DNA of 35,286 nt, taken from positions 1-35,286 of the forward strand of contig JAJXEL010000003.1 of assembly GCA_021639925.1 (NCBI GenBank). The letters are read 5' to 3'. Positions 4,415 through 26,068 of this stretch are shown in pieces. The translations under genes and the position numbers were made by a program. The stretch comes from Alphaproteobacteria bacterium (GTDB lineage: Bacteria > Pseudomonadota > Alphaproteobacteria > CAAGCB01 > CAG-977). The notes under the pieces were generated by a model, which was not told the origin of the DNA, did no database searches, and saw only the letters and a program-made list of their open reading frames with translations. The first letter of the stretch is position 1; the number at the start of each line of letters is the position of its first letter.

Positions 4415-4417
4415 TCA

Positions 4418-4995: not shown

Positions 4996-5027
4996 AAAAG
5001 GAAATATCTGTTTAAAAGGGGGGCCTT

Positions 5028-6299: not shown

Positions 6300-6300
6300 G

Positions 6301-7014
6301 CTATTTCCCGGTGAAATGAATCCGGCTTAAAAACACGCGCCAGGCCGCCGTGACGGCCGCGGGATTTTCCAGCGGCGGCAGATGTCCGCTGTCCGCGATA
6401 ACGGCATGAACGGCTGTTGGAATCTGCGCCGTCATACGGTCCAGGGATTCCGGCGGGGAAAGGGCGTCCTGCGCGCCGCCCATGACCAGCGCGGGACACG
6501 GAATCTTTTTTAACAACTCTGTTGAATCCGGGCGGCTCATGATTGTTTTTTGTTCGTTGACATACTTATCAACGCCTGTCGTCCGCGCCATGTGTTCCAG
6601 AATATGACGGATAATGTCGTTATTGCGGTGATCAGGGGAAATGATGCCGAACAAAGCGGATTCCATAACGGCTTCGATGCCCTGCGTTTGCGCCGTTTCA
6701 ATCATTTCCTGCCGTTTTTTGCGCGCCGGTTCCGGATCGGCAAGGGCGTTCGTGTCCATTAAAATCAGTCCTGCGACACGTTCCGGCGCTTGCCGTAAAA
6801 TTTCAAAAGCGACATATCCGCCCATTGAAATGCCGCCCAAAACAAATTTTCCGCGGATTTGGGACAAAATCCGCTTCGCCGTGTCCGTAACGTCGGTGTC
6901 CAGCCCCAAATCGGGAACAAAAAAATCGGCGTCGTTTTCCAACGCTTTGATCTGATGAATAAACAAACCGGCGTTACATAACAGCGCGGGCAGCAAAACA
7001 ACAGGCGTTTTCAT
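6301..7014 (-). CDS. Alpha/beta-fold hydrolase
   Basis: 237 aa with a nucleophile elbow GGISMGG and a C-terminal DSGHLPPLE (catalytic His region). It is convergent with pfk, with a 1-nt gap. Confidence 0.75.
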   Translation of the reverse strand: MKTPVVLLPALLCNAGLFIHQIKALENDADFFVPDLGLDTDVTDTAKRILSQIRGKFVLGGISMGGYVAFEILRQAPERVAGLILMDTNALADPEPARKKRQEMIETAQTQGIEAVMESALFGIISPDHRNNDIIRHILEHMARTTGVDKYVNEQKTIMSRPDSTELLKKIPCPALVMGGAQDALSPPESLDRMTAQIPTAVHAVIADSGHLPPLENPAAVTAAWRVFLSRIHFTGK

Positions 7015-7649: not shown

Positions 7650-9065
7650 ATGAAATTTTCTGATTTAGGACTCAATGAAAACACGCTTAAAGCCGTCGCC
7701 GATGTCGGGTATGAGGAACCGACGCCGATCCAGGAAAAGGCAATTCCCGAAATTTTAAAACGCAACGACGTTATGGGGATCGCGCAGACGGGAACCGGAA
7801 AAACCGCGGCTTTTACTTTGCCGATGATCGATATTCTGGCAAACGGCCGGGCAAAAGCGCTGATGCCCAGAACGCTGATTTTATCGCCGACGCGCGAACT
7901 GGCAACGCAGATCGCCGAATGTTTCCAGAAATACGGCAAATACCAAAAATTGTCGATGGCTTTGCTGATCGGCGGAGAATCAATGATAGAACAACAAAAA
8001 ATCCTGTCTCGCGGGGTTGACGTTCTGATCGCCACGCCGGGGCGTATGATTGATTTGTGCGAACGCGGCCGGATTTTGCTGCGCGACGTGCAGGTGTTCG
8101 TATTGGACGAAGCCGACAGAATGCTGGATATGGGCTTTATTCCCGATGTTGAAAAGATCGCCGCGAAACTGCCGGCGATGCGGCAGACTCTGCTGTTTTC
8201 CGCAACGATGCTGCCGGAAATCAAAGCGCTGGCGAAAAAGTTTATGAAATTCCCGGTCGAAGTCCGCGTCGATCCTGCAATGTCGACGGCCGATACGGTC
8301 GAACAGTTTATCGTAAAAACCAACGAACGCGGCAAACGCGAGGTGCTGCGCAATCTGATCCGCGCGGAAAACGTTCAAAACGCGATGATTTTCTGCAACC
8401 GTAAAAAAGACGTGGATATTTTGTTTAAGTCGTTTACGAAACATCATTTTTCGGTTGCCGCTTTGCACGGCGACATGGCGCAGGGGGCGCGGACGGAAAC
8501 GCTGAACGCTTTCCGCGACGGACAGGTGCAGCTGCTGGTTTGTTCCGACGTTGCGGCGCGCGGACTGGATCTGCCCGACGTATCGCATGTGTTCAATTTT
8601 GACGTTCCCGTTAATTCCGAAGATTACATTCACCGTATCGGCCGGACGGGGCGCGCCGGAAAAACGGGGCGGGCGTTTATGCTGATCACGTCTGCGGATT
8701 TCAAGGCGCTGGCGCAGATCGAAAAAATGATCGGCAAACAAATCGAAGAAATGTCGCGTTTTTCCGTTGAAATGGATCCGCCGCCGGAACCGAAAAGCAG
8801 ACGGCGCGGCAAAAACGCGAAACAGGGAAAAACGGAAAATCCCGGGCCGAAAAAGGAAACAAAAGAAAAACGGGATAAACAAAAACCGGCGGCCGGCGCG
8901 GACAAGACGGCGCCCGCGCGGAAAACGCAGGAAAAATCCGGTCATGGGAAAAAACGCGCCGATGTGAAAAAAATGCGGGGAGCCGGTGTTCCTGCGGCTG
9001 CGGAAATCAAAGCTTTCGGTAAATCAATGCCGGCATTTATGATGAACGAGGTTAAGCTGTCATGA
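7650..9065 (+). CDS. rhlE: DEAD-box ATP-dependent RNA helicase (RhlE-like) with a basic C-terminal tail
   Basis: Motifs AQTGTGKTAAF, PTRELA, VLDEADRM, SAT and HRIGRTGRAGKTG, followed by a Lys/Arg-rich tail. Confidence 0.9.
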   Translation: MKFSDLGLNENTLKAVADVGYEEPTPIQEKAIPEILKRNDVMGIAQTGTGKTAAFTLPMIDILANGRAKALMPRTLILSPTRELATQIAECFQKYGKYQKLSMALLIGGESMIEQQKILSRGVDVLIATPGRMIDLCERGRILLRDVQVFVLDEADRMLDMGFIPDVEKIAAKLPAMRQTLLFSATMLPEIKALAKKFMKFPVEVRVDPAMSTADTVEQFIVKTNERGKREVLRNLIRAENVQNAMIFCNRKKDVDILFKSFTKHHFSVAALHGDMAQGARTETLNAFRDGQVQLLVCSDVAARGLDLPDVSHVFNFDVPVNSEDYIHRIGRTGRAGKTGRAFMLITSADFKALAQIEKMIGKQIEEMSRFSVEMDPPPEPKSRRRGKNAKQGKTENPGPKKETKEKRDKQKPAAGADKTAPARKTQEKSGHGKKRADVKKMRGAGVPAAAEIKAFGKSMPAFMMNEVKLS

Positions 9066-9769
9066 AACAAATTCTGACTGATCTGCCGCTGCGGACTTAC
9101 GCTTCTCTGCCTGAAGGAAAGCCTGAACAGGCCGGCGTTTTTTTTCACGGATACGGGGCTGACGGGCAGGATCTGTTTAATATCAGCGGCGTTTTGCGCC
9201 GTTTTTTCCCGAAAGCGGCGTTTTATTTTCCGGACGCTCCCGAAGAGCTGGGATTTTTCGGCGGTTATCAATGGTTTTCTTTGGACGGATATGATCCGGC
9301 TGTTTTGCAGGATCCCGCCGCCGGAAAAAAATATCTGGATTCTTTGATGCCGCTGGCAGAAATTGCCCGCGGCGTGACGGATCCATATATGCGCGCCGTT
9401 TTAAAACACAGCGGCGTGTCCGCGGATAAAGCCGCGTTATGCGGTTTTTCCCAGGGCGGGCTGATGGCCGTTTATACGGCGCTGCGTTTTCCTGAAAAGC
9501 TGGCAGCTGCCGTCGGATTGTCTGCCGTGGCCGTTATGTTTGACGGCCGGACGTTTTCGCAAGACAAGATTGTTTCCAAACCGTCGGTAACCTTAATTCA
9601 CGGCGATGCGGACAACGTTGTGCCGCCTGCGGTTTTTGAGCTGAATAAACAAAACCTGAAAAGCGCGGGGGTGTCGGTTGACGGCTTTGTCGTGCCGGGG
9701 TTAATGCACGGTATAGACGAAACGGCGCTGCGCCATCTTTGTTCGGCATTGGAAAAAAGCTTTGTCTGA
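9062..9769 (+). CDS. Phospholipase/carboxylesterase-family serine hydrolase
   Basis: Motifs FFHGYGADGQDLF, GFSQGGLMAV (nucleophile), LIHGDADNVVP and LMHGI. ATGA overlap with the helicase stop at 9062-9065. Confidence 0.7.
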   Translation: MKQILTDLPLRTYASLPEGKPEQAGVFFHGYGADGQDLFNISGVLRRFFPKAAFYFPDAPEELGFFGGYQWFSLDGYDPAVLQDPAAGKKYLDSLMPLAEIARGVTDPYMRAVLKHSGVSADKAALCGFSQGGLMAVYTALRFPEKLAAAVGLSAVAVMFDGRTFSQDKIVSKPSVTLIHGDADNVVPPAVFELNKQNLKSAGVSVDGFVVPGLMHGIDETALRHLCSALEKSFV

Positions 9770-10582: not shown

Positions 10583-10777
10583 ATGAAGAAAAAAATAATC
10601 GGCAGAATGTTTTTTATGATCGCTTTGTGCGCCGTGTTGAATTCATGCGGCTCTATTTATGAAAAAGAACCGATCGGAATAGGCCCGGATATTTCTGAAT
10701 TGAAACGTTCTCCGTGCGCTTGTATGCTTTTAAAACTGCCGGCCGATTTGCCTGAATGGATAACGGCTCAGGGATAA
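10583..10777 (+). CDS. Small lipoprotein in the VirB7 position
   Basis: 64 aa with a signal peptide and a lipobox-like VLNSC|G, preceded by a strong RBS (GGGGAGGA). The call rests on position between the virB8 paralogs and on size. No VirB7 sequence motif was recognised. Confidence 0.45.
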   Translation: MKKKIIGRMFFMIALCAVLNSCGSIYEKEPIGIGPDISELKRSPCACMLLKLPADLPEWITAQG

Positions 10778-11574: not shown

Positions 11575-13110
11575 GTGAAAAGAAATTTTAAAATCCGCCT
11601 TTTTGCTTTTGTTTCATTGTCGTTGTGTTTTTTAACGCACACAGCTGCGGCACAGCAGACGGCGGCGCGTGAATCAATGGACGCGGCGATTGAACAGTCA
11701 AACGGACAATATTCCGAAATCGATATGCCGTTTTGGTCTTTGGGCATGCAGCAAAAAGCATGGAACAAACCGATGGAGCATTTGGGCGAAGGACAGTCCA
11801 AACCGGGGTATTCCAGATATCATTGGACGCCTGATCTGGTTTTGCCTTTGCGTATCCGGGAAGGCATGCATACGCTGATTAATTTCCCGTCCTGGGAATT
11901 GATTGAAAACGTTTTTTTGGGAAATGAAAGCGCTTTTGGCGCGCAGAAAGTCGCGCAAAACGCTTTGATGGTTTTCGCGGCAAGCGTTGATCTGGTCGGT
12001 ATGGATACGAATATGATTGTTTTCGGCCGTTCCGGCAACCGATACGTTTTTTATTTAAGAAGCGAAACCTTTAATACGGACAGAATTACAAACTCTGTCG
12101 TTGATATTGTTGTCAATGATACGAAATTTGTTCCCGACGATTCCGGACAGACGCCTTTTGCTTCCGGCGCTGTCGGCGCGGGAGCTGCTTCTGTCGCGGG
12201 GGGCGCCGGAAATTTCAGCGGCGGCAGTCTGCGCGGCGGAAAAAAAACGACGACAAAAAACGGAACGGAAGACTGGCTGGCGGATATTGAAGTCGATCCC
12301 GAAAAACTGCGTTTCGACATTGACGTTTTTATTCCGAATCCGGCTGATATGGAAATTGCGCCCGAACGTGTCTGGCGCGATGAAATTTTCACTTATATTG
12401 ACTTCGGGCCGAAAGCTTTGACAATGACGGAACGCCCGATCGTCAACCTGTTGTCGCAAGGATCCGAAGTGCCTATCGGATTCAGAACGCGCGGACCGAA
12501 CGGCAGACTGATGGTTGTCGAAGGAATCGGCGATTTGGTTTTGCGCAACGGAAAACGTATTTTATGCCTGAAAATCAGAAAAGATCCGACTTACGGCACC
12601 GAATGGGTGGAATATGAAGAATCTGTCCAGCCGAAATGGTCGCCTGGCCCGATGATTACGACGGGCGGTTATAATATGTCTGCGGGCGGTGCCGGCGGCG
12701 GCGCGGTTAATATGAATATGCAGGCGGCGGCGAATGCCATGATGATGCCGGCCGGGGCGAACGGAACGTTGTCGGCTAATCAGATCGCGCAGTTTTCACA
12801 GACAGGGCGCGGCAGTTCCCGTACGGTACAGCGTTATCGCGGCGCGCCTGTGGAAACGATTGCCGTCGAGCTGGGATCTGACAGCGAAATCGCGCCGCTG
12901 GAACAGAAATGGGATAATATTTCTCGCAGAAACAAAGATCTGCTCGGCGGGTATGAACCGTATTATTCCGTTGACGCTGTGGCGGAAGGCGAATCAAGGG
13001 ATTTGTTCCGTTTGCGCATCGGTCCTGTTGACAGTATCGAAGCCGGGGACAAATTATGTAATCAATTAGGTCGCCGCGGGGTGACTTGCATGGTTGTGCG
13101 GACACAATGA
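11575..13110 (+). CDS. virB9: VirB9/CagX/TrbG-family outer-membrane core protein with a C-terminal SPOR-like domain
   Basis: GTG start after a GAAGG RBS, with signal peptide MKRNFKIRLFAFVSLSLCFLTHTAAA. The N-terminal VirB9 domain reads LRIREGMHTLINFPSWELIENVFLGNESAF...TNMIVFGRSGNRYVFYLRSE. The C-terminal VirB9 domain reads PERVWRDEIFTYIDFG...LMVVEGIGDLVLRNGKRILCLKI. The last 85 aa or so resemble a SPOR domain. Confidence 0.8.
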   Translation: MKRNFKIRLFAFVSLSLCFLTHTAAAQQTAARESMDAAIEQSNGQYSEIDMPFWSLGMQQKAWNKPMEHLGEGQSKPGYSRYHWTPDLVLPLRIREGMHTLINFPSWELIENVFLGNESAFGAQKVAQNALMVFAASVDLVGMDTNMIVFGRSGNRYVFYLRSETFNTDRITNSVVDIVVNDTKFVPDDSGQTPFASGAVGAGAASVAGGAGNFSGGSLRGGKKTTTKNGTEDWLADIEVDPEKLRFDIDVFIPNPADMEIAPERVWRDEIFTYIDFGPKALTMTERPIVNLLSQGSEVPIGFRTRGPNGRLMVVEGIGDLVLRNGKRILCLKIRKDPTYGTEWVEYEESVQPKWSPGPMITTGGYNMSAGGAGGGAVNMNMQAAANAMMMPAGANGTLSANQIAQFSQTGRGSSRTVQRYRGAPVETIAVELGSDSEIAPLEQKWDNISRRNKDLLGGYEPYYSVDAVAEGESRDLFRLRIGPVDSIEAGDKLCNQLGRRGVTCMVVRTQ

Positions 13111-16100
13111 ACGAAGAATTACTCAGCTCATCAGACAGATACTTAAAAAAATCCAACAAGATGTTGTTGATTGTCGGGATTATAGCCTTTTTGGCTTTCC
13201 TGACAGGGGTTATTGTTTTGTTGAGCGGAGGCGAAGAAGGCAAGAAAGACGCCGAAGTCACTATTGGCGGATCGGCGGAAAGCTCCAGCAGTATTACCGG
13301 CGGCAATGCGGATACGTTTAATCTGGCCGAAGAGCCGGCTCCTTCAACCGTGCGGCTGGTCGTAACGCCGGAAACAATGCGTTTCGATCAGGTTGTGCTG
13401 GGTACTGTGGCGGAAGGAACGTTGACATTGTCGGCTTCTTCCGGCCGGATCAGTATTACTTCGATAGAGTTTGAAAATAAACAGGAAGACGGCTTTGTCC
13501 TGGAAAACAAATGCCGTAAAGACATTGTCCTGACCGGTGATGTTACCTGTAACGTTGTTGTTCGCTGGGAACCAAAGACGGCGCGGACAATCCAGTCTAA
13601 CCTGGCGGTCCGCTGGGCTGATGAAACATTCGGCGGTATCGGCAGAAAAGTCATTGTTCCCATTTCGGCAATGGCGATTGACACCAGCATGTGCGGCGTC
13701 TGCGATGAAGCGCCGGGCAGCGGCGGTTCCATGCTTGACCAGTTGCGTCAAAAAGGACGCGTTATTTTGGGGCCCGACGGAAAACCGATCGGTTATGCCG
13801 ATGAAAACGGCGTTGTTTACGGGCTGGACGGCAAACGGATAGGCACTTTGCGCGAAGACGGAACGGTCGTTGACGATCAGGGGTATGTGATCGGCGTGGC
13901 GGAAGGAACTCGGCTGGCAATCGGCCCGAACGGAGAAATTCTGGGAACGATTTTACCTGACGGGCGTGTCATTGACAAAGACGGCCGCCTGATCGGTTAC
14001 GCTTTGCCTGACGGAACGATCGTCGATCTGGACGGAAATGTTATCGGGTCGGCGGTAAGAACGGGAATAGCTTATGATAAAAACGGCAATCCGATCGGAC
14101 GGATTATGCCTGACGGAACGGTCGTTGATGAAAACGGAAATATCATCGGCTATTTAAATCCGGACGGAACGATTGTCGATGCCAACGGAAACATTATCGG
14201 ATCGGTCGCGCCGCAGGGCACCGTTGTGGACGCTTCGGGCAAAGCGTTGGGCATTGTTATGCCGGACGGAACGGTCGTTGATGCCGACGGCAACATTATC
14301 GGCCGCGTTCTGCCTAACGGTTTTGTCGTTGACAGAGACGGCAACATTATCGGCCGCGTTGTTAAAGAAGGACTGGCCATTGGTCCCGGCTGCCGTATGA
14401 TTGGCCGGATCAGTACGGACGGTTCCGTTATGTCTTCAAACCGGCAGGTCGGGCGTTTGACGGCGTCAATGACGGTTGTCGACATGTCGGGCAATCCGAT
14501 CGGCGGTTATGTGGAAGAAGGGGCTTTGATTGACTGGGCCGGAAAAATTGTCGGTAAAGTGGATCAGGACGGCCACCCGGTCAGTTTCAAAGGAGATCCT
14601 CTGGGGTGTCTGACGCCTTACGGCACAGTTGTTAATGATGCCGAAGAAATTATGGCGGCCGTTTTGCCGAAGGGAACCGTTGTCGGCACGCAATGCGGCG
14701 TTGTCGGGCGCGTTATGCCGGACGGCAGCGTTGTCGGCGACGGGCAGATCAAAGGGCGGATTTTGCCGGACAAATCATTTTTGTCGACAGAAGGAAAAAT
14801 TGAAGGAGCCCTGGCGCGTCAAAATGTCGGCGTCGGGCCGGGGTGCCTGTCTTTGGGATACGCCAATATAGACGGGCAGGTTATTACGGCGAAGGGGGAA
14901 TTTGTCGGTTGTCTGGCGGCGAACGGAGAAATTCTGGATAATCAAAAAGTCGTTTTGGGCCGGATTCTTGATTCTGCCATCGCGTTAAACGCGGACGGTC
15001 GTGTCGTCGGTATTATGGATCCCGCCGGCAAGATTCAGGATAAACAGGGAAAAATTCTGGGGTGTATGGATCCCGACGGTTTGGTAATAAATTCCAAAAA
15101 TGAATCGGTCGGTATGCTGATGCCGATAGGCGGCGTTTTGGATCGCGACGGCCGAACAATCGGCTGGGTCATGCCGGACGGGTCTGTTTCCAACGCCAAA
15201 AACAGTACGATCGGCAAAGTCATGCCGGACGGAACCGTAATTGATTTGAGCGGGCAGACGGTCGCGCGTGTCGCCCCGCATAAAGGCGTCGCGTTAAGAA
15301 GCGCCTGCGAACCGGCCGGTACCATTTTGGTTGACGGCCGTGTCGTGGACAAAGAATTTAAACGATCGGCCTATATTCAGATGAATGATACGCTGGTTGG
15401 TGAAAACGGAGATTTTGTCGGTCGTGTCGCTTACGGATCGCGGGCAATCAGTCCTAAAGACATGTATCTGGGGACAACGGCAAACGATGGCGCGCTGTAT
15501 AATCCGGCAGGGGAAAAAATCGGCTGTCTGCGTCCGGATTCCTTGTTTGTTGATTCAAATAATAAATTTTTAGGGGCAGCTTTACCCGAAGGAATCGCCA
15601 TTAATAATAAATCAGAGCTATACGCCCGCGGCGATTCGATTGCCAAAGCTTTGAATTTAAAGGGAACTGAATTTATCGGATCAATAACGCTCAGCAGTTT
15701 TGTCAAGGAAGGCGATACGATTTCCGGCGGTATTATTCCGGACAGAGCCGATGTTCTGGATATTAAAACCAGCGAAAAAATCGGCCGTCTGCTGCCTGAC
15801 GGAACGGCTTTGGATTTGCTCAGCCGTTATTTGGGGCGTTTAAGAATGCCCGGCGGCGAAATCGTGAACAAAGACGGCCGCGTCGTCGGTAAAATATTTG
15901 TCGGCATGCGGCAGGTGATCGGCCCGAACGGAGAAATTCTGGGCGTTGTCATGCCTGACGGAACGGTTGTTGACGCTTCCGGCCGCGTTATCGGCAAAGC
16001 GGATCTGAACGGAAAAGTGGTTGACGCTTCCGGGCGCGTCATCGGCGAAGTTATTCCGGTCGGCCAGCCGATTATAGGTCCTGACGGTAAAATTATCGGT

Positions 16101-19100
16101 TATGTCGGCATCGACGGGCAGATCGTTGACAAAGACGGCAATCCCGTTTTGGGTCCTGACGGAAAACCGCTGCGTTACCGGGCGGGCGGATCTGTCGTTG
16201 AAGACAGCGGAAAAGTGATCGGCAGAATCGGCGACACGCTGGAACGCCTGGTGTATGATGAAAACGGCAACGTGATCGGCCGTGTTCTGCCTGACGGAAC
16301 GGTTGTTGATTTAAACGGCAACGTGATCGGGAAAATGCTGCCCGACGGAACGGTTGTTGATTTAAATGGAAACGTTATCGGGCGGGCCGGGCCGCCGGAA
16401 CGGCTGGTATATGATGAAAACGGCAATCTGATCGGCCGTGTTCTGGCCGACGGAACGGTCGTTGATTTGAAAGGCAACGTGATCGGCCGTGTCCAGGCTG
16501 ACGGAACGGTAACCGCCCTGGGGTCAAAAGTGATCGGTTATACTGTTAAGGACGGTCTGGGGCTGAACTTTAAAAATGAAATTATCGGCAAAATCGATTC
16601 TTCCGGACAGCTGAAAGAAGCGGGATCGGATAAATCTCTGGGGGTTCTGCAGGCGGACGATACGATTACCGACAGCCGAAACGCCATTATCGGCAAAGGG
16701 GTCGTGAACGCTGTTCCCGTCGGGCTGCAATGCCAGATGCTTGGTTCGATTGATGACAAAGGGCAGGTCATTGATACGGCGGGCCGGCAGATCGGGCGGC
16801 TGAATTTTGACCGGACTTTGGTTAATTCCGGTAATTCTCAGATCGGTTTGGCTTTGGGGCAGGAATCTATCATCAACGAACCGTGCAAAATCATCGGACA
16901 AATTACGGCGGAAGGAAAAGCCGTTGATACCAAAGGCGCGGAAATCGGCTGCGTTGATTTTGAAGGATTGGTAAAAGATAAAAACGGCAAACGTTTGGGG
17001 CGTATTGTCCAAAAAGGACAAATTCGCGGCCCTGACGACCAAATGATCGGCAGGATTGTTTCCAGCGGCGAAGCGTTGGGGGCAGAGGGGAATGCCTTAG
17101 GCTGTTTTTCTGTTGACGGGGCTGTTTTAGATAAAAATAAAAAAATTCTGGGGGTCGCGGCGGACATGAAATATGCCGTTGACGATCAGGGAAAAATTGT
17201 CGCGCATATTCTGGGCGGAACGTATGGCGTTAATCCCGAAGGCGGCGCTTTTGTCGGAACGTTGAACGGGCAGAATTTAACCGGATCTGATAATAAACAG
17301 CTGGGCGTTCTGGTGCCTTCCGGCCGGCGTGTGATCGCCGTGGACGGCAAAACGATCGGTACCGTTTTGCCCCGCGGACGCGTTCATAACGACCGCGGAG
17401 AAGAAATCGGCTATGTTACGTCTTCAATGCGCGTTTTAACCGGCGACCGTAAGTTTTTAGGCCGTGTCGTTCCGATCGGCGAAGAATGTAAAGACGGTAA
17501 AAATAATGTTGTCGGAACCGTTCATTTCGACGGGACGATTGTTGATGAAAGAAAGCAGGTCCTGGGACGTTTGCTGGCCAGCGGGCAGGCTTTGGATAAT
17601 GCCGGGGCGCATTTATGCATGATCTCTTTAATCAGCACAAATGACGACGGGTCTTTGTTCCCGAAAGGGTTAATCGGCAAAATGGTTTACGGGCCGGACG
17701 GCAAACCTTTGGGGGTTGTCGGCGCTGACGGTTTTATCCGCGATGCGAACGGCAATATTATCGGCCGTGTTCTGCCTGATGGTACGGTCGTTGATTTAAA
17801 CGGCAATGTGATCGGCAAAGCGTATCCGAAAGGGGCCGTGTTCAGCCCTGACGGGAAATTCCTTGGAATTGTTGATGCGGACGGGTATCTGCGCGATGAA
17901 AACGGTAACATCATCGGCAGAATGTTGCCGGACGGAACGGTCGTCGATATTAACGGCAACATTATCGGCCGCGCTTTGCTGGAAGATGGCATTGTCGATT
18001 CAAAAGGAAATTTCCTGACCAGAGCGGGTGAAGACCGGCTGGTATATGATGAAAACGGCAACGTGATCGGCCGTGTTTTACCCGACGGAACGGTTGTTGA
18101 CTTAAACGGTAAAGTCATCGGAAAAATGCTGCCCGACGGAACAGTCGTTGATTTGAACGGCAAGGTTATTGGTAAAGCTGCTCCGGCCGGTCAGTCAAAA
18201 AATGTCCGTATAGCCGTCGGCCGTGACGGAAAGTTCTTGGGCATTGTCGGTGAGGACGGTTTTGTCCGGGACGAAAACGGCAATATTATCGGCCGTGTTC
18301 TGCCTGACGGTACGGTCGTTGATTTAAACGGTAATGTGATCGGTTCCGTTATTGAAGGGGAACCGATGCGCGACGAAAACGGCAATATCATCGGTGTTAT
18401 TATGCCCGACGGACGGGTCGTTGACCTGGACGGCAATGTGATCGGACGCATTAATGCAAACGGAGAAATCGTTGACGCGGACGGAACCGTTTTGGGAACG
18501 TGGCGCGGCGGAAAACTGACGGCGATGAGCGACAAGCTGCAACAAAAACGTTTTGCTTTCGGCAAAGACGGCAAACGGATCGGCATGATTATGCCCGACG
18601 GAACGGTCGTTGATGAAAACGGCAATATTATCGGCCGCGTTGATGAAAACGGTAATGTTATTGATCTGGACGGCAATATTATCGGGACGGTTACGGATCC
18701 GGGGGCGGTCGCCGGACAACAAGGGGGCCAAGGGGACCAAAAAGATGACCGTGTGTCTATTTTTGGCACTTTTGATCCGGATAATTACCGGTATCGCGGC
18801 AAATCTTTGGGGGCCGGCGGCGGCACCGGAAAAGGGGAACGTTACGATCCTGCCCGGATTAAACAGCTGCGGGCGCTGCAGATGGCTTACCGCCGCCAGA
18901 TCAGGCCGGGGCGGGGAATAGGTATAGCCTCTGTTGAAGAAGATTTGATGAAAAAACAAAAACGCAGCAAAAACTGGAATGCTTTGGGGATACAGAAAAA
19001 TGTTTCTTCATATCGCGTCAACATGGATAATATGATTTTGGCGGATAAAGCGATTCCTGCCGTTTTGGCGCGTTCTATTGATACGGAACAGGAAGATATT

Positions 19101-19973
19101 CCCATTTCCGCGATTGTTGAGCGCAATATTTATTCCGAATCAGGACGTAAAATTATTATTCCCGCCGGCAGCCGTATTATCGGTGAATTGTCGGGTACGT
19201 CCGCTTCTGAAGAAGTCGGGTCGGCTTCGAAAGTCGAAATTGAATGGACCCGCCTGATTCGTCCGGACGGCGCAGCGTTCCAGTTTGAAGAAGGCGTTTC
19301 CGGCGATGCTTCCGGCCGCGCGGGCGTCGGCGCGTATATGGATCGTCAGCTGATGAAGAAATACGGGCTGCCGGTGGTTCAGTCAACAATTACTTCTGCG
19401 ATTTTGTATGCGATGGCGACAAACGATTCCGCGGCTGTCGGATCTGAAGGCGAAGTCGCTATGTCCGGCCGTCAGCAGGCGGCGGAAGATGCGCGTACCA
19501 GATTTTCCGATACGATGCAGGAAATTTTTGATGATTTAATTACCGAAACGTCAAAGCTGAAAACACGTTTGTTTGTTCCGGCCGGGACGCGTATTACTGT
19601 TTTTGCTAAATCTGATCTGTGGCTGCGCAGCTCTTTGGAAGACGAGGAAGAAGAAAACGGCGAAATCACGAAGCCTAATGTTTTGTTGGATCCGGATAAA
19701 GAATTCCCTGAAGGAGAAACAACGCCGGCACAAGGCGGCGACGTCAATACCAATAATGCAAACCAGGGAAATCCGAATGATCCGAATAACTTGCAGCAGC
19801 AGCAGCAAATTTATTATAATAACTACGCCGGCCAGCAGCCGCAGCAACAGCCTCAGCCGCCGCAGCTGATTGATCCCAATAAACACAAACAGCAGCCGCA
19901 GCAACTTGTTCCGCAGCAGACAATGCAGGAAAAGAAAGAAGAACCGGTTGATCCTGTTCCCGAGCTTTTCTAA
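13107..19973 (+). CDS. virB10: Giant VirB10/TrbI-family T4SS core protein (about 2,288 aa) with a large internal tandem-repeat region
   Basis: ATG 13107 overlaps the virB9 stop (ATGA). The N-terminal TM is MLLIVGIIAFLAFLTGVIVLL. The C-terminal TrbI/VirB10 pattern lies at about 19020-19630: ILADKAIPAVLARSIDTEQEDIPISAIVERNIYSESGRKIIIPAGSRIIGEL, VEIEWTRLIRPDGAAFQF, GDASGRAGVGAYMDRQL and LFVPAGTRITVFAKSDLWL. About 1,640 aa of 17-aa repeats lie between the two ends. Confidence 0.85.
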   Translation: MNEELLSSSDRYLKKSNKMLLIVGIIAFLAFLTGVIVLLSGGEEGKKDAEVTIGGSAESSSSITGGNADTFNLAEEPAPSTVRLVVTPETMRFDQVVLGTVAEGTLTLSASSGRISITSIEFENKQEDGFVLENKCRKDIVLTGDVTCNVVVRWEPKTARTIQSNLAVRWADETFGGIGRKVIVPISAMAIDTSMCGVCDEAPGSGGSMLDQLRQKGRVILGPDGKPIGYADENGVVYGLDGKRIGTLREDGTVVDDQGYVIGVAEGTRLAIGPNGEILGTILPDGRVIDKDGRLIGYALPDGTIVDLDGNVIGSAVRTGIAYDKNGNPIGRIMPDGTVVDENGNIIGYLNPDGTIVDANGNIIGSVAPQGTVVDASGKALGIVMPDGTVVDADGNIIGRVLPNGFVVDRDGNIIGRVVKEGLAIGPGCRMIGRISTDGSVMSSNRQVGRLTASMTVVDMSGNPIGGYVEEGALIDWAGKIVGKVDQDGHPVSFKGDPLGCLTPYGTVVNDAEEIMAAVLPKGTVVGTQCGVVGRVMPDGSVVGDGQIKGRILPDKSFLSTEGKIEGALARQNVGVGPGCLSLGYANIDGQVITAKGEFVGCLAANGEILDNQKVVLGRILDSAIALNADGRVVGIMDPAGKIQDKQGKILGCMDPDGLVINSKNESVGMLMPIGGVLDRDGRTIGWVMPDGSVSNAKNSTIGKVMPDGTVIDLSGQTVARVAPHKGVALRSACEPAGTILVDGRVVDKEFKRSAYIQMNDTLVGENGDFVGRVAYGSRAISPKDMYLGTTANDGALYNPAGEKIGCLRPDSLFVDSNNKFLGAALPEGIAINNKSELYARGDSIAKALNLKGTEFIGSITLSSFVKEGDTISGGIIPDRADVLDIKTSEKIGRLLPDGTALDLLSRYLGRLRMPGGEIVNKDGRVVGKIFVGMRQVIGPNGEILGVVMPDGTVVDASGRVIGKADLNGKVVDASGRVIGEVIPVGQPIIGPDGKIIGYVGIDGQIVDKDGNPVLGPDGKPLRYRAGGSVVEDSGKVIGRIGDTLERLVYDENGNVIGRVLPDGTVVDLNGNVIGKMLPDGTVVDLNGNVIGRAGPPERLVYDENGNLIGRVLADGTVVDLKGNVIGRVQADGTVTALGSKVIGYTVKDGLGLNFKNEIIGKIDSSGQLKEAGSDKSLGVLQADDTITDSRNAIIGKGVVNAVPVGLQCQMLGSIDDKGQVIDTAGRQIGRLNFDRTLVNSGNSQIGLALGQESIINEPCKIIGQITAEGKAVDTKGAEIGCVDFEGLVKDKNGKRLGRIVQKGQIRGPDDQMIGRIVSSGEALGAEGNALGCFSVDGAVLDKNKKILGVAADMKYAVDDQGKIVAHILGGTYGVNPEGGAFVGTLNGQNLTGSDNKQLGVLVPSGRRVIAVDGKTIGTVLPRGRVHNDRGEEIGYVTSSMRVLTGDRKFLGRVVPIGEECKDGKNNVVGTVHFDGTIVDERKQVLGRLLASGQALDNAGAHLCMISLISTNDDGSLFPKGLIGKMVYGPDGKPLGVVGADGFIRDANGNIIGRVLPDGTVVDLNGNVIGKAYPKGAVFSPDGKFLGIVDADGYLRDENGNIIGRMLPDGTVVDINGNIIGRALLEDGIVDSKGNFLTRAGEDRLVYDENGNVIGRVLPDGTVVDLNGKVIGKMLPDGTVVDLNGKVIGKAAPAGQSKNVRIAVGRDGKFLGIVGEDGFVRDENGNIIGRVLPDGTVVDLNGNVIGSVIEGEPMRDENGNIIGVIMPDGRVVDLDGNVIGRINANGEIVDADGTVLGTWRGGKLTAMSDKLQQKRFAFGKDGKRIGMIMPDGTVVDENGNIIGRVDENGNVIDLDGNIIGTVTDPGAVAGQQGGQGDQKDDRVSIFGTFDPDNYRYRGKSLGAGGGTGKGERYDPARIKQLRALQMAYRRQIRPGRGIGIASVEEDLMKKQKRSKNWNALGIQKNVSSYRVNMDNMILADKAIPAVLARSIDTEQEDIPISAIVERNIYSESGRKIIIPAGSRIIGELSGTSASEEVGSASKVEIEWTRLIRPDGAAFQFEEGVSGDASGRAGVGAYMDRQLMKKYGLPVVQSTITSAILYAMATNDSAAVGSEGEVAMSGRQQAAEDARTRFSDTMQEIFDDLITETSKLKTRLFVPAGTRITVFAKSDLWLRSSLEDEEEENGEITKPNVLLDPDKEFPEGETTPAQGGDVNTNNANQGNPNDPNNLQQQQQIYYNNYAGQQPQQQPQPPQLIDPNKHKQQPQQLVPQQTMQEKKEEPVDPVPELF
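13765..18695 (+). repeat. In-frame tandem array with 51-nt (17-aa) period, consensus about P-D-G-T-V-V-D-x-x-G-N-I/V-I-G-x-V/M-L, on the order of 90-100 units
   Basis: At 14104-14360 there are five consecutive exact-length units: PDGTVVDENGNIIGYLN, PDGTIVDANGNIIGSVA, PQGTVVDASGKALGIVM, PDGTVVDADGNIIGRVL and PNGFVVDRDGNIIGRVV. Well-conserved blocks sit at about 13765-14370, 15920-16540 and 17690-18695, separated by degenerate units. The unit count is region length divided by 17, not an exact count. Confidence 0.85.
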
Positions 19974-19991: not shown

Positions 19992-20969
19992 ATGAGTACG
20001 GATTCCTTTCAGGTTTTAAAATCAACATTGCGTTATCTGTCCTATTGGTATGAACAGGATAACGTGGAAGAAGTTGCCATTAACCGGCCGAATGAAATCT
20101 GGCTGCGCCTGCGCGGGCGCCGGGCTCATCCCTGGGCGTGCCAGCAGGACGCGAACCTGTCCAGAACATATTTGACGGATATTATGCATATTATCGCCAA
20201 CACTTTTGAATTGCCGTTTGACCCCGAACAGGGATCGCCGGCCGTTTATGCCACTTTGCCGGGCGATCACCGTTTTACGGGAATTGCCGGTAAAAACGTC
20301 ATGTATGATAATGAAGATTTAACCGGCGGTATCGCTATGTGCGTGCGCGTTCATTCCGACGACGTCAAATTCGGTTTGGGCGATTACGGGTTAAAATCAG
20401 GGGAACGTCTGCAAAAATTGAATAAATTAAAAGAAGTGGAAAATCCCGAAGATCCTTACGAACGTTTAATTCTGTCGATTAAACGCGGCGACCATATTTT
20501 GGTTTCCGGGGCGACGGCAACCGGTAAAACAACATTTTTGAATAACCTGCTGACAATTTTGGATTCACATAAACGGGTGATTACGATTGAAGATACCCGC
20601 GAATTGATCGTTCCGCACCCTAATCATGTTCATTTGGTGTTGTCGCGTACCGAACAGACAAATACGATGACATATCCGAAACTGATTGACCTGGTCGTCC
20701 GTTTTACGCCTGACGCGATTATCGGAGGGGAAATTTCGACGGCAAACGCGGGGGCGTTGTGGGAATTGATGGGATCCGGGCATGATAACTGCTTTGCGAC
20801 AATCCACGCCGAAAATTCCGAAGCTGCTTATAAAGCGTTTACAGACCGTATTTTGCATTGTTATCCGACGATTGACCGCGAAAAAACGATTTCCGAAATG
20901 CATGACAAACTGCGTGTTGTCCAGATTAACCGCCAGGGCAATATCCGCGCCGTAACGGAAGTAACCTGA
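19992..20969 (+). CDS. virB11: VirB11 T4SS traffic ATPase
   Basis: Motifs EVAINRPNEIWL, Walker A SGATATGKTTFLN, ITIEDTRE, GGEISTANAGALWELMGSGHDNCFATIHA. A GAGGGG RBS lies upstream. Confidence 0.9.
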   Translation: MSTDSFQVLKSTLRYLSYWYEQDNVEEVAINRPNEIWLRLRGRRAHPWACQQDANLSRTYLTDIMHIIANTFELPFDPEQGSPAVYATLPGDHRFTGIAGKNVMYDNEDLTGGIAMCVRVHSDDVKFGLGDYGLKSGERLQKLNKLKEVENPEDPYERLILSIKRGDHILVSGATATGKTTFLNNLLTILDSHKRVITIEDTRELIVPHPNHVHLVLSRTEQTNTMTYPKLIDLVVRFTPDAIIGGEISTANAGALWELMGSGHDNCFATIHAENSEAAYKAFTDRILHCYPTIDREKTISEMHDKLRVVQINRQGNIRAVTEVT

Positions 20970-21035
20970 TTTATCCGAAAAATTATCGTTTGAATTTACG
21001 GGAAAGAAAGTATATATCTGTTCCCGAAAGGTTAG

Positions 21036-22529
21036 GTGTTTGTGCAGTTAAGTTTTACGCTTTACATCTCCGGTTACCTTCTTTTGTTTTTAGGGTCGGC
21101 CATGCTTATTCCCGCCGGCTTGGATTATTTTCGGGAACAACCGGATTTTGCCTTTTCTTTTGCAACGTCGTCCGCCGTAACAATGTTTTGGGGGATGTTG
21201 TTTGTTTTGGCTTTTAAAGGCATGTATAAAAAACCGACAACGGCGCAGATGTATCTGGCGACAACGTTGTCTTGGATTTTGGTGTGTTCTTTTGCCGCCA
21301 TACCGTTTGTTTTCGCGCCGTTTTCCATTTCGTATACCGACGCTTTTTTTGAAGCGATGTCCGGGCTGTCAACCATGGGCGCGACAATTTATCCTGATTT
21401 GGATAACTGCTCCGACGGCATTATTTTATGGCGCAGTCTGCTGCATTGGTTCGGCGGGCTGGGAATTATCGCGCTGGCAATGCTGCTTTTGCCGTTTTTA
21501 CGGATCGGCGGAATGCAGCTGTTCCAAATGGAAAGTTCCGATAAAAACGATAAAATGAGGCCCAAAACCGTACAGGTTATTTGTACGGTCGCGGTTGTTT
21601 ATGTCGCTGCGACGGCGTTATGTCTGCTTTGTTTGTTAATGACGGAACTGCGTTTTTTTGAAGCGCTGAATTTCAGTCTGGCAACGATTCCGACGGGCGG
21701 ATTTGCTCCGCGGAACACTTCCGCCGTTAATTTGTCCGCCGCGGCGCAGTATATTATTGCTTTTTTTATGTTTATCTCCGGAATGCCGTTGTTTTCTTTA
21801 TATTTTTTATATAAGGGTGATTGGAAAAAAATTTTCGGGGATATTCAAATCAAAACATATTTCTGGGTCGTTGTTATTTTAACGGCTGTTTTAACGACAT
21901 GGCTGATGGTCCGCCACCCTGAAATGAATTTTTTCAAAATCATCAGGACGTCTTTGTTTAATATTATTTCCGTTCTTTCTTCGACCGGTTTTAACGCTTC
22001 GGATTTGGAAGTGGACGGCACGTTCGCCGTTTCTTTGTTTATTTTTCTGACGCCGGTCGGGGCGTGTACGGGATCAACCAGCGGCGGAATTAAGCTGTTT
22101 CGCTTTAATATATTAACAATGACAATGGTCCAGTCGCTGCGCCAGAAACTGATGCCTCATGCCGTTTTGGTGCCGAAGTTTAACTGCCGTCCGGTGACAA
22201 CGGATATTATTTTAAGCGTTCTGATTTTTATGATTACGTTTTGTATCACGGCCGTAATTTCTATTTTGCTGCTGTCCATGTGCGGGTTGGATTTTCTGAC
22301 GTCTGTTTCCGCTGTTTTTTCAGCGCTGGGGAATACGGGAATCGGCCTGGGCCCGGTAATCGGCAGCTCCGGTCCCGGTTTTTGTTCCCTGCCGTCTTTT
22401 GCCAAATGGGTGCTGTCGGCAGACATGCTGTTGGGACGTTTGGAATTTATGAGTATTTTTATCCTGATTTTGCCGATGGCCTGGAAACGCAATGTTCTGG
22501 GGCATTATAAATCGGAAGCCGCGTTTTAA
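21036..22529 (+). CDS. trkH: TrkH/KtrB-family K+ uptake membrane subunit
   Basis: Polytopic membrane protein with four P-loop-like motifs (MSGLSTMGAT, TIPTGGFAP, LSSTGFN, ALGNTGIGLG). GTG start. Confidence 0.85.
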   Translation: MFVQLSFTLYISGYLLLFLGSAMLIPAGLDYFREQPDFAFSFATSSAVTMFWGMLFVLAFKGMYKKPTTAQMYLATTLSWILVCSFAAIPFVFAPFSISYTDAFFEAMSGLSTMGATIYPDLDNCSDGIILWRSLLHWFGGLGIIALAMLLLPFLRIGGMQLFQMESSDKNDKMRPKTVQVICTVAVVYVAATALCLLCLLMTELRFFEALNFSLATIPTGGFAPRNTSAVNLSAAAQYIIAFFMFISGMPLFSLYFLYKGDWKKIFGDIQIKTYFWVVVILTAVLTTWLMVRHPEMNFFKIIRTSLFNIISVLSSTGFNASDLEVDGTFAVSLFIFLTPVGACTGSTSGGIKLFRFNILTMTMVQSLRQKLMPHAVLVPKFNCRPVTTDIILSVLIFMITFCITAVISILLLSMCGLDFLTSVSAVFSALGNTGIGLGPVIGSSGPGFCSLPSFAKWVLSADMLLGRLEFMSIFILILPMAWKRNVLGHYKSEAAF

Positions 22530-22954
22530 GGCGAATCCGGTTTTTGTTGCGCAGCCGGCGCGTTTTCGCCGTCTTGCTGTTGTTGGGCGCGGCGCAGACT
22601 TTGTTCGTTTAATCCGCGGGCAATGTTCATATTGATGCTGATCAGGATTTCCAAAGACTGAGCCGACGGTTTTGCCATTACGGCAAAAGTATGTTTAAAA
22701 ATAAAATGTGCCAGATTAAAAATATTTTGTTTTATTTCCAACGGCAGGGGGTTGGATTCTTCTGTCGCGCCGGTGACCAGAATAGTCCACAGTTTCCGGT
22801 TAAGGTCCAAAGCTTCATGCAGTTCCGTCGTCGGTACGGGCCAGCGTTCCTTGATACCGTTTAAACGCGAAGCCGTCCGGATCAGCGCGCGGGCCTCCAG
22901 TTCGTTTTGCGGCATGGCAGAAGATTCTGTGGTCATATACGGATTGGTGGTCAT
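22526..22954 (-). CDS. flaF: FlaF-like flagellar biosynthesis regulatory protein family member
   Basis: 142 aa. The pattern ELEARALIRTASRL...LHEALDLNRKLWTILVTGATEESNPLPLEIKQNIFNLAHFIFKHT matches my recollection of alphaproteobacterial FlaF (LD.NR.LW, N.LP..LR..I). Its stop codon overlaps the trkH stop on the opposite strand (TTAA at 22526-22529). Confidence 0.5.
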   Translation of the reverse strand: MTTNPYMTTESSAMPQNELEARALIRTASRLNGIKERWPVPTTELHEALDLNRKLWTILVTGATEESNPLPLEIKQNIFNLAHFIFKHTFAVMAKPSAQSLEILISINMNIARGLNEQSLRRAQQQQDGENAPAAQQKPDSP

Positions 22955-23058
22955 GGCGGCGCTCCTTAAAAAAACAGAAATATGATAACCGAAGGTGTGT
23001 TAAAAATCAAAAATCTTTGCTAGATTATAAAAACGAAAAGATTAAAGATGAGTTGAAT

Positions 23059-23505
23059 ATGACCGGAACCGAAGAACTTTTTTCATGGGAAGGCGACGTC
23101 TGCCGCGATATGGTCACGTATCGTTTTATCGAATTATCAATTGCCGCTTTAGCGACGGCGTTTGAACAAGACGCGGAACTGCGCGATAAATACGCTTTGT
23201 GGCTGTCGCAGAAAAATGACGAAACAAAACCGATTATTTTATACGCGTTTGAACTGGAACAGGAAGACAGCGTCAATATTTTCGCCATGCCGCAGGAAAA
23301 CCAGTTTTTTATTCAGTTTCGGTCATCGTCGTTTGAAACGTCTGTTTCAATCGTTTATGATATAGATTTGATGGATATCCGCGCAGCCAGAGTCGTCATG
23401 TTTTCCGGCAAAGCGCTGTATGCCGTTTCGTGGGCAGAGGCTTTGCATGCCGCCTGGGACGATGAATTGCTGGCTTTGATGCGTTCGAAAGGAGACGATG
23501 CATGA
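23059..23505 (+). CDS. Small acidic hypothetical protein
   Basis: About 148 aa from ATG 23059 (the track start at 23017 is TTG). It is Asp/Glu-rich with no signal peptide and no recognised motif. Its stop overlaps the next start (ATGA at 23502-23505). Confidence 0.4.
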   Translation: MTGTEELFSWEGDVCRDMVTYRFIELSIAALATAFEQDAELRDKYALWLSQKNDETKPIILYAFELEQEDSVNIFAMPQENQFFIQFRSSSFETSVSIVYDIDLMDIRAARVVMFSGKALYAVSWAEALHAAWDDELLALMRSKGDDA

Positions 23506-24452
23506 AAATAATATCAATGTGCGTTGCCGCAATAGCCGTTTTTTTTGTTTTTTCCGCTCCGGCTTCGTCGGCGCCGGCGGCTGCTAAAAAAAGTCCGTAT
23601 CCGACCAATACCTGCGGCGCAGAAAGCGTCGGCATGCCGTTCAGGATTGTCGGATTTAAAAATTATCCGCCTTTTTCCTGGTCTGAAATGGACGAACAGT
23701 ATTATAAGGACACCGGTTATAAACGTTATGCATATCATGGCTTTATTTTGGATCCTTTGAAACAGTCGCTGAATGATATTCATATCGTGCGGATTCAGGA
23801 CATCGCTTTTGATGATTTTAATGATGCGCTGAAAGCAATGCTGCACGGCAAAGCCGATTTGCTGTTTACCGGTTATTACGTTGACGAGGGAAAATCAGGT
23901 CTGGATTATATTTATCCGGCTTATTTCGGTAATCCGTTTATTGTGTTGTCCCGCAAATCGAAAAAAATTGATGTGGAAGACATTTCTGAATTAAAAGGCA
24001 TGAAAGGCGTTGTCCGGCGTGAAGAAGAAGTTGAATCGCTGATCCGGGGATTATTGCCGACCGATACAAAGCTGGAAGTTGTGGACGGTCCCGAAGCCGC
24101 TTTTCGTATGTTGTTGTCCGGCAATGCCGATTTTATGATCACCAGCCCTTATGCGGCCGATGCGGAAGCCAAACGGTTTAAAATTAAAGACCGCCTGCAT
24201 TTCGGCAGCAAAATATTGCGTCATATCAAATACTTTATGGCTTTTTCAAAGATGTCTATCTGCCGCCCGTATAAGGATATCTTTGCCCAGAAATTTAATG
24301 AGCGCTTTAAAAACAAAGCGGAAATTGAAAAACTGATTCATAAATACATTGATATCTGGGTCGAACAGCATGCCGATGAACCGCCGCTGGAATATACGCC
24401 GGCCGCTGACGAACAACCGGCGCCCGCCGCGGCGGCCCGGCCGCAAGGTTAA
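23502..24452 (+). CDS. Periplasmic solute-binding protein, family 3-like (amino-acid-type SBP), orphan
   Basis: Signal peptide MKIISMCVAAIAVFFVFSAPASSA. The SBP_bac_3-like pattern reads FRIVGFKNYPPFSW, GKADLLFTGYY, LKGMKGVVRREEE and GNADFMITSPY. No permease or ATPase gene is adjacent. Confidence 0.55.
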   Translation: MKIISMCVAAIAVFFVFSAPASSAPAAAKKSPYPTNTCGAESVGMPFRIVGFKNYPPFSWSEMDEQYYKDTGYKRYAYHGFILDPLKQSLNDIHIVRIQDIAFDDFNDALKAMLHGKADLLFTGYYVDEGKSGLDYIYPAYFGNPFIVLSRKSKKIDVEDISELKGMKGVVRREEEVESLIRGLLPTDTKLEVVDGPEAAFRMLLSGNADFMITSPYAADAEAKRFKIKDRLHFGSKILRHIKYFMAFSKMSICRPYKDIFAQKFNERFKNKAEIEKLIHKYIDIWVEQHADEPPLEYTPAADEQPAPAAAARPQG

Positions 24453-26029: not shown

Positions 26030-26068
26030 CCTATGACAAGATATATTTGTTTTTTCGAGGGGGAAAAT

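Follow-up and report, generated by a model that had tools for sequence, protein, structure and literature searches.

We identified a giant VirB10 gene in a stretch of 35,286 nucleotides (nt) from contig JAJXEL010000003.1 of an uncultured member of the Alphaproteobacteria (assembly GCA_021639925.1); the whole of this stretch is referred to below as the window. VirB10 is the only subunit of type IV secretion systems (T4SSs) that spans both membranes. The protein found here carries, between a transmembrane anchor and a TrbI/VirB10 barrel domain, a long tandem array of 17-amino-acid (aa) beta-hairpin repeats that, as judged from profile matches, is a member of the beta-flower/DUF3659 sequence family. 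It is a third, independently evolved giant VirB10 after CagY of Helicobacter pylori and DotG of Legionella and Coxiella, and is a member of neither. The giant form is an old trait of a whole clade of uncultured gut and rumen Alphaproteobacteria. Its array is strongly constrained, at least as conserved as the barrel, and fixed in length within a species.

Identification of a giant VirB10

The virB10 open reading frame (ORF) lies on the + strand and runs uninterrupted from an in-frame TTG at 13086 or an ATG at 13107 to the stop at 19973. From the ATG the product is 2,288 aa long. The stop of virB9 and this ATG share the sequence ATGA at 13107–13110. The gene on the 3' side (19992–20969) matches T2SSE (E 6.5e-21) and the NCBIfam VirB11 model TIGR02788 (1.2e-42, under the cut-off of that model), and the gene on the 5' side (11575–13110) matches CagX/VirB9 in Pfam (E 6e-14). 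The gene order virB9-virB10-virB11 is kept in related loci, as is usual for members of the VirB10/TrbI family. Coordinates of all features are collected in Table 1.

The C-terminal domain matches Pfam TrbI (PF03743) at aa 1977–2173 with E 3.1e-28 and 99.4 bits, where the cut-off is 35. By sequence, the closest solved structure is ComB10 (2bhv, E 1.8e-15), with weaker matches to CagY (2e-6 to 5e-5) and to Xanthomonas VirB10; the ComB10 alignment covers the helix-loop-helix insertion region. The NCBIfam equivalog models are matched below their cut-offs (NF038091 at 89 bits against 220, NF038092 at 104.6 against 300). By these sequence criteria, the protein is a divergent member of the VirB10/TrbI family that passes Pfam and falls under the equivalog cut-offs.

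At the other end of the protein, a hydrophobic stretch, MLLIVGIIAFLAFLTGVIVLL, lies within aa 1–40 and forms an inner-membrane helix according to both the sequence and the AlphaFold2 (AF2) model. It is followed by a linker modelled with low confidence (aa 41–83) and then by a beta module (aa 84–191). The best Foldseek match of this module is the HYDIN PapD-like domain 2e6j, with a template modelling score (TM-score) of 0.73 and a root-mean-square deviation of 2.8 Å, and ASH domains of CEP192 are also matched. An earlier note, made from the letters of this DNA, had proposed a single ORF joining a VirB10-type transmembrane N-terminus, a beta-rich module, 17-residue repeats and a TrbI barrel with a Q/N/P-rich tail, coupled to virB9 through ATGA and followed by virB11. 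AF2, Foldseek and Pfam agree on these four elements, the ORF coordinates and the Pfam and NCBIfam matches bear out the gene context, and the PF03743 match establishes the protein as a bona fide giant VirB10.

The Q/N/P-rich tail behind the barrel is the fastest-evolving part of the protein. Its very end is nonetheless recognizable across orthologs: [PG]-x-L-F or a close variant ends about 86 of 90, and PQLF or PELF ends 66 of them. This conserved end suggests a tethered docking peptide or a C-terminal signal like that of outer-membrane proteins.

Integrity of the gene

The virB10 gene is real and not an assembly artefact. Using the identical VirB11 protein as a look-up, we found eight contigs from different samples and with different styles of record naming (k141/k119, NODE, scaffold). 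In each of the eight assemblies a gene of 2,288 aa is called at the corresponding position, and these copies differ from the window by 10–45 nt and 1–6 aa, with no indels. Two further contigs stop inside the gene, as expected for repeats that are hard to assemble.

That the ORF might be a chimera of collapsed or misjoined repeats is hardly conceivable. All of the assemblies do carry contig names in the style of short-read assemblers, and some contigs (L009, L010 and L011) break inside virB10. However, the same 6,867-nt gene is present in eight independent assemblies that differ in sample and naming style, equally long intact ORFs occur in 71 other species, and codon-level purifying selection extends along the entire array. 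On these three grounds an artefact, which the earlier note had named among the outcomes that would undo its claim, was rejected.

The repeat array is a beta-hairpin array of the beta-flower family

The array spans 1,638 aa. Its identity autocorrelation is 0.257 at a lag of 17, 0.206 at 34 and 0.198 at 51, over an off-register background of 0.077, and the consensus unit is GNVIGRVLPDGTVVDLN. Near-perfect blocks of repeats occupy aa 225–430, 940–1135 and 1530–1862, and the units between these blocks are more degenerate. Tandem Repeats Finder detects only a small part of the array at the DNA level (16237–16537), because the DNA copies have diverged; the period was set at the protein level instead.

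The array matches Pfam Bflower_2 (PF21785) with E 1.7e-127 and 418 bits against a cut-off of 38, in 18 stretches. In addition, it matches PF21784 Bflower (138.6 bits against 25) and PF12396 DUF3659 (165 against 24.8). By these matches the repeat is not an unknown one; its family is already catalogued. AlphaFold models were the only basis on which the beta-flower fold was defined, in 2023; it is a shallow barrel of four, five or six hairpins, with [DNEQ]xxG as the tip motif, and has no assigned function (Durairaj et al. 2023, PMC10584680). The consensus unit has this tip motif, in the form of D-L-N-G and P-D-G turns, and DSSP assigns alternating short and long strands to the model.

The AF2 model of aa 1532–1862 consists of beta hairpins only, with a mean predicted local distance difference test (pLDDT) score of 84.8 and a predicted TM-score of 0.42. 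The confidently modelled parts, about 85, 50, 100 and 51 aa long, are separated by joints of low confidence. Searching the Protein Data Bank (PDB) with this model, Foldseek found no global structural template; hairpins matched only locally, in Rhs shells, teneurins and choline-binding repeats (TM-scores 0.05–0.2). The choline-binding matches are CbpF, LytA and LytC (E 1.6e-5 to 3e-3, TM-scores 0.1–0.2).

YD/RHS repeats are matched more weakly by sequence, with PF05593 at E 2e-18 and no single stretch passing, and TIGR01643 at 81 bits. An RHS toxin shell was considered and rejected: the repeat hits are weak, the Foldseek matches to Rhs proteins are local with TM-scores of 0.05–0.13, there is no toxin or protease domain, and the C-terminus is TrbI.

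Paired cysteines

The protein has 18 cysteines, all of them C-terminal to the transmembrane helix. Twelve are invariant across 22 species, Cys136 and Cys148 of the Ig-like module among them. The remaining six disappear only two at a time, both members of a pair being missing from the same genomes: 429 with 501 (L029), 530 with 602 (L019, L020, L022, L023 and L032) and 1260 with 1333 (L021). The spacing within pairs is constant at 72–73 aa, and the first cysteine lies in the motif GPGC..(I/L)G and the second in G..(I/L)GC. The remaining pairs were assigned by exclusion as 580/653, 734/807, 1209/1282, 1461/1504, 136/148 and 196/199. Two sets of pairs are interleaved with an offset of three units, 530–602 with 580–653 and 1209–1282 with 1260–1333.

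From this covariation we infer that the paired cysteines form disulfides joining hairpin i to hairpin i+4. Such disulfides would imply an oxidising compartment and an array that doubles back, each turn taking in about four to five hairpins.

Evolution of the array

Species whose barrels share as little as about 50% identity still have collinear arrays. In comparison with locus L012, the repeats are 95–97% identical and TrbI is 90% identical, and in comparison with L030 the first repeat block is 82% identical and TrbI 61%. Nei-Gojobori ratios of nonsynonymous to synonymous substitution (dN/dS), calculated against five species, are 0.035–0.09 for the array, 0.09–0.13 for TrbI and 0.15–0.29 for the tail. 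Copies of the repeat are 60–87% identical at the DNA level, and exact direct repeats reach 33 nt at most.

Being a giant VirB10 with repeats from a host-associated bacterium, the protein brings to mind a CagY-like contingency locus, where repeats recombine and vary the length of the protein and thereby tune secretion or evade immunity. Gains and losses of units between species do occur, and the gaps are limited to near-perfect blocks at aa about 1000–1200 and 1600–1700. However, nine conspecific copies from different samples are of equal length with no indels. This fixed length, the divergence of the DNA copies and the lack of long exact repeats, the collinearity across species and the low dN/dS of the array led us to reject a contingency locus, which we regard as most improbable. 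The evolutionary regime of the array is the reverse of that of CagY and of the recombining, variable middle region of DotG.

Distribution and a split-gene form

We scanned one genome per GTDB species and obtained 80 loci, in which the barrel is 40–87% identical to that of the window. By their record labels almost all are metagenome-assembled genomes of uncultured Alphaproteobacteria, with human gut, rumen, chicken and rabbit among the sources. A very long ORF is present in every locus that is uncut by a contig end (71 complete loci), so that the length of the window's virB10, compared across related genomes, is a property of the clade and not a one-off. A single gene is found in 33 of the 71, with lengths of 2,037–2,684 aa from stop to stop and one of 1,658.

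In the other 38 complete loci, VirB10 is split into two adjacent, translationally coupled ORFs whose products sum to 2,581–3,699 aa. The first ORF (1,113–1,579 aa) encodes the transmembrane helix and the ASH module, contains 31–55 matches to G-x-x-[IVLM]-G, and has the conserved end ...EVAKNRRN*. The second (1,427–2,332 aa) encodes further repeat units and the barrel. In L042, for example, the start of the second ORF lies 2 nt past the stop of the first, and this ORF opens with a classical Sec signal peptide, MKKHSKTLTRLSHKFTMFLCVLTGVFVLSTKGLAA|QE. The first ORF of L042 is collinear with aa 1–1149 of the window protein and the second with aa 900–2202; thus, the split form corresponds to the single-gene protein interrupted within its array.

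When 1.84 billion representative proteins were searched exhaustively with HMMER, the picture was similar. Nearly all hits above about 160 bits are 1,100–2,400 aa long or are fragments, and the lower-scoring hits are almost all 200–830 aa, typically 500–630 aa. In a collection of 5.8 billion proteins, which lacks the exact 2,288-aa sequence, a word-index search turned up this family only as fragments no longer than about 630 aa; VirB10 lengths were therefore taken from the genomic loci and the representative library. In a plasmid database there was no giant form, and matches were confined to the barrel with at most 36% identity. Public records name these proteins only 'TrbI/VirB10 family protein', 'hypothetical protein' or '5-fold beta-flower protein, partial'. 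Our literature search found no description of this VirB10 architecture, and one paper that seemed a candidate, about gut Alphaproteobacteria with reduced genomes, says nothing of secretion systems.

Comparison with known VirB10 proteins and beta-flowers

Canonical VirB10/TrbI/ComB10 proteins, such as Agrobacterium VirB10, R388 TrwE and H. pylori ComB10, share with the giant protein the transmembrane anchor, the TrbI barrel and the position between virB9 and virB11. In contrast to these, the giant protein is 4–6 times longer, has an array instead of the Pro-rich linker, and has an extra ASH Ig-like module and an extra C-terminal tail. Closer to it are VirB10 proteins of a Sphingomonadales type that have no repeats. 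These proteins (for example P0112 and P0113), 550–630 aa long, have the transmembrane helix, an ASH/PapD-like module and a barrel with 25–40% identity. They carry a Pro-rich linker exactly at the position of the array, as in P0105, P0107 and P0113. Because the non-repeat relatives share the anchor and the ASH module and have the linker at this place, the array stands in place of the linker, as the earlier note had proposed.

The gene for P0113 (locus L091) lies in a contiguous virB2-virB11/virD4 cluster that encodes VirB4, VirB5, VirB6, VirB8–11 and VirD4 and is located beside DnaB- and UvrD-like genes. This cluster looks like a mobile element, and the VirB4 homologues of it that bear an organism name come from Sphingomonadales genera. 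The VirD4 gene of L091 (15532–18708) is interrupted by an intein with Hint/LAGLIDADG domains. LAGLIDADG hits are also present in several of the VirB4 homologues of this cluster (P0370 and P0376–P0378), which are 1,100–1,280 aa long.

CagY (Cag7) of H. pylori is likewise a giant VirB10 with a large repeat region between the anchor and a homologous barrel. The CagY repeats are alpha-helical modules (PMC2581425), and its gene contains many direct DNA repeats and undergoes in-frame rearrangement (PMC2194252, PMC5954226). In contrast, the repeats described here are 17-aa beta hairpins, the longest exact repeat is only 33 nt, and the nine conspecific genes are of equal length. Pfam gives no hit to a CagY repeat family at E <= 0.1, and the array segment modelled by AF2 is all beta; in this respect the earlier note, which had seen no relation to the CagY repeats, was right. 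Moreover, the genes of the cag island context (CagT, CagM, Cag3) are absent from this locus, where the neighbours are virB8, virB7-like, virB9, virB11 and housekeeping genes.

DotG (IcmE) of Legionella and Coxiella is a VirB10 homologue with an enlarged central repeat region and a conserved TrbI C-terminus, and its length depends on the species, ranging between about 1,000 and over 1,500 aa (PMC6761968). However, DotG has pentapeptide repeats and is encoded in a Dot/Icm type IVB locus, whereas the window protein has no pentapeptide Pfam hit, a VirB-type context and an array that is collinear and conserved. Membership of the CagY or the DotG group was rejected, since neither has related repeats, the genes around virB10 are of VirB type and the evolutionary regime is reversed. 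The claim of an independently invented giant VirB10 stands, but CagY, the well-known exception in the earlier note, is not the only one, as Legionella DotG/IcmE, which that note left out, is repeat-expanded as well (PMC6761968).

The described beta-flower proteins (PF21784/PF21785, clan CL0395) have the same hairpin unit and [DNEQ]xxG tip and match at the level of sequence family. Each of them is a small, single domain of about 96 residues; some are lipoproteins, and no function is known for them (PMC10584680). In contrast, the giant VirB10 holds about 18 domain-equivalents in tandem inside a defined subunit of a machine. The repeat family recurs on another inner-membrane-anchored, periplasmic trans-envelope subunit, a CpaB/RcpC protein (P0190). 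Its gene (8001–9461 of locus L093) encodes SAF and RcpC domains and lies within a complete Tad/Flp pilus locus, adjoining genes for a secretin, a CpaF-like ATPase, TadB/C and TadE. However, P0190 has about 10 units that are appended at the C-terminus and not inserted, and it belongs to another machine in other organisms.

The rare giant forms of VirB10, CagY and DotG, are central to how expanded secretion machines are built and regulated. What is new here is a third such expansion with a different repeat, made of beta hairpins of a fold known from prediction only. Its behaviour is also distinct from that of CagY and DotG, in that its length is fixed within a species, it is more conserved than the barrel, it appears to be stapled by disulfides, and it is often split between two genes. 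We argue that the linkers of giant VirB10 proteins can be precise architectural elements and not only variable regions that face the host. The finding also assigns a 'dark' fold to a defined machine and compartment, so that the function of beta-flowers becomes testable.

A probable role as periplasmic scaffold

We favour, with some reservation, the explanation that the protein is the VirB10 of a chromosomal, vertically inherited virB7-virB11 set in this clade, and that its array acts as a rigid, disulfide-stapled, position-specific periplasmic scaffold and not as a recombining, variable or antigenic part of the protein. The array would be located in the periplasm, at least initially, as indicated by the topology, by the paired cysteines and by the Sec-exported half in the species with split genes. 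There it would fold back into compact beta-flower barrels or a tight superhelix, with disulfides linking hairpin i to i+4. It may form a strut, cage or ring around or along the secretion channel, possibly engaging peptidoglycan. With the canonical 14 copies, the array would add about 1,300 hairpins or roughly 2.5 MDa to the machine. In the split species, the hairpin arrays would bind one another, or further components of the machine, and in this way bridge both membranes. The split genes imply that a covalent VirB10 link between inner and outer membrane is dispensable in the clade, and so the arrays probably associate non-covalently.

Several points weigh against this scaffold. The periplasmic location of the array is predicted from sequence and models, any binding partner is putative, and the 14-fold stoichiometry is assumed from canonical systems. 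The topology in itself would also be compatible with exposure, as the CagY repeats, which are in the same topological position, are reported to be surface-exposed (cited in PMC6761968). The interleaved cysteine pairs appear to be at odds with a simple string of separate five-hairpin barrels; they may fit stacked four-fold barrels or a continuous superhelix better than separate five-fold barrels. In addition, tblastn with queries from L091 found no virB4, virB5, virB6 or virD4 within 10 kb in the window or in the approximately 80 related loci. A database search with the L091 VirB4 reached only Sphingomonadales-type homologues.

The last of these points raises the alternative of an orphan virB7-11 module that no longer secretes, with VirB10, VirB9 and VirB7 co-opted as an envelope-spanning structural or tethering complex. 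It is also in line with this that the flanking genes are housekeeping genes, and that the split form severs the covalent link between the two membranes that canonical VirB10 uses for energy sensing. However, all 80 loci have kept VirB11, a dedicated T4SS ATPase, and its conservation is high. T4SS genes are also normally scattered in some Alphaproteobacteria, as in the rvh system of Rickettsiales. We consider an orphan module very unlikely.

The earlier note had called the protein CagY-like and had envisaged an adhesin-like or host-interaction layer. The fixed length, the 33-nt longest repeat, the low dN/dS and the periplasmic indications run counter to a CagY-like tunable region and to an adhesin-like layer, and we consider either less likely than the periplasmic scaffold. 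A surface layer that decorates the machine and acts in adhesion or in interactions with host or partner cells would suit host-associated organisms, and the repeats of CagY and DotG have been argued to be exposed (PMC6761968). The disulfides would fit an extracellular location too, and the hairpin repeats have a local resemblance to YD/RHS and teneurin-type repeats. However, with the inner-membrane anchor on one side of it and the barrel on the other, the array is periplasmic by topology, and the distal half in split species has a Sec signal only and no known device for export across the outer membrane. Surface-exposed host-interaction regions typically diversify. In contrast, the dN/dS of the array is very low, below that of the barrel, and length does not vary among the nine conspecific copies. 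An exposed layer is thus quite unlikely in our estimation.

A further alternative, which overlaps with the scaffold, is that the array binds peptidoglycan or the cell wall and, together with the SPOR domain of VirB9, anchors or spaces the machine in the sacculus. SPOR is a peptidoglycan-binding domain. Its presence on VirB9 and the same repeats on the periplasmic CpaB/RcpC suggest that hairpin arrays may serve as periplasmic spacers or as modules that engage the wall, and the local Foldseek matches to CbpF, LytA and LytC point the same way. However, the TM-scores to these choline-binding structures are very low, and no known peptidoglycan-binding Pfam family scores above threshold in the array. 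Moreover, some 96 units that are conserved in a position-specific manner, together with the putative disulfides, resemble an architectural part more than a multivalent ligand-binding surface. Wall binding as the role of the array seems unlikely, although less so than surface display.

A bolder form of the scaffold is that the arrays build a hitherto unseen, self-associating periplasmic superstructure, such as a disulfide-stapled cage, tube or multi-ring of >250 beta-flower domain-equivalents, that takes over the bridging of the membranes from the covalent VirB10 chain. Such a takeover of the bridging is suggested by the split of VirB10 within the array, in about half of the clade, into one half with the anchor and another exported by Sec. 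We put this form of the scaffold forward tentatively, as a possibility that may well prove wrong. If it is true, the beta-flower fold would gain its first role in a cell, and the T4SS core complexes of abundant, uncultured gut commensals would show a new principle of architecture. The locus also flags a conserved and unusual secretion apparatus in widespread uncultured Alphaproteobacteria of the human and animal gut.

Gene neighbourhood

Table 1. Features of the virB7-virB11 module and of the giant VirB10. Positions are those of the window, except in the last row.
Feature	Position	Strand	Basis and remarks
virB8 paralog a, 234 aa	9860..10564	+	Pfam VirB8 PF04335, E 7e-15; in 63/80 related loci
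Probable VirB7-like small lipoprotein, 64 aa, lipobox LNSC	10583..10777	+	translation MKKKIIGRMFFMIALCAVLNSCGS...; kept in 55/80 loci
virB8 paralog b, 257 aa	10789..11562	+	Pfam VirB8, E 5e-23
virB9, 511 aa, C-terminal SPOR domain	11575..13110	+	CagX PF03524, aa 81-332, E 6e-14
Giant virB10, whole gene, 2,288 aa	13107..19973	+	ORF, Pfam, eight assemblies
VirB10 aa 1-40, short cytoplasmic N-terminus and single transmembrane helix	13107..13226	+	AF2 helix aa 9-40, pLDDT 86-97
VirB10 aa 84-191, ASH/PapD-like Ig beta-sandwich with Cys136/Cys148	13356..13679	+	AF2 pLDDT about 90-97; Foldseek
VirB10 aa 192-224, linker with invariant CxxC Cys196/Cys199	13680..13778	+	
VirB10 aa 225-1862, about 96 units of 17-aa beta-hairpin repeat, 14 conserved Cys	13779..18692	+	Pfam, period 17, AF2
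VirB10 aa 1863-1960, Gly-rich basic linker, conserved ERYDP.R motif	18693..18986	+	consensus of ortholog alignment
VirB10 aa 1961-2180, TrbI/VirB10 C-terminal barrel domain	18987..19646	+	Pfam PF03743, PDB sequence matches
VirB10 aa 2181-2288, acidic then Q/N/P-rich tail ending PELF	19647..19970	+	sequence
virB11-like ATPase, 325 aa	19992..20969	+	Pfam T2SSE, NCBIfam TIGR02788; in 80/80 related loci
Example of split VirB10 (locus L042), two adjacent ORFs	3303-6734 and 6719-11155 of L042		split loci fall in L038-L090

The virB7-like, virB8, virB9, virB10 and virB11 genes are kept as a module across the clade, and the flanks differ between distant species. In the window the other genes are housekeeping genes, which encode phosphofructokinase, a DEAD helicase, TrkH, FlaF, adenosine deaminase, homoserine dehydrogenase and RecJ. 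The composition is even across virB10, which, together with these housekeeping neighbours, indicates that the locus is chromosomal.

The 64-aa ORF between the two virB8 paralogs is called as a gene in eight assemblies. It probably encodes a VirB7-like lipoprotein, on account of its size, lipobox and position. The SPOR domain of VirB9 (PF05036, aa 464–509) is matched with E 8e-5 and 23.3 bits, where the cut-off is 21. At 511 aa this VirB9 is unusually long, and its C-terminal end, RRGVTCMVVRTQ, is conserved throughout the clade.

Three conserved ORFs (162, 316 and 276 aa) at 23017–24452 (+) and 26033–26863 (+) have no match in Pfam or NCBIfam. The first two (162 and 316 aa) overlap by 4 nt, and they adjoin the T4SS module in 8 and 18 related loci, respectively. 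The window also shows strong AT skew, which is +0.30 at positions 1–1000 and -0.27 and -0.22 over the TrkH/FlaF region (21001–23000); the GC content of these stretches is unremarkable.

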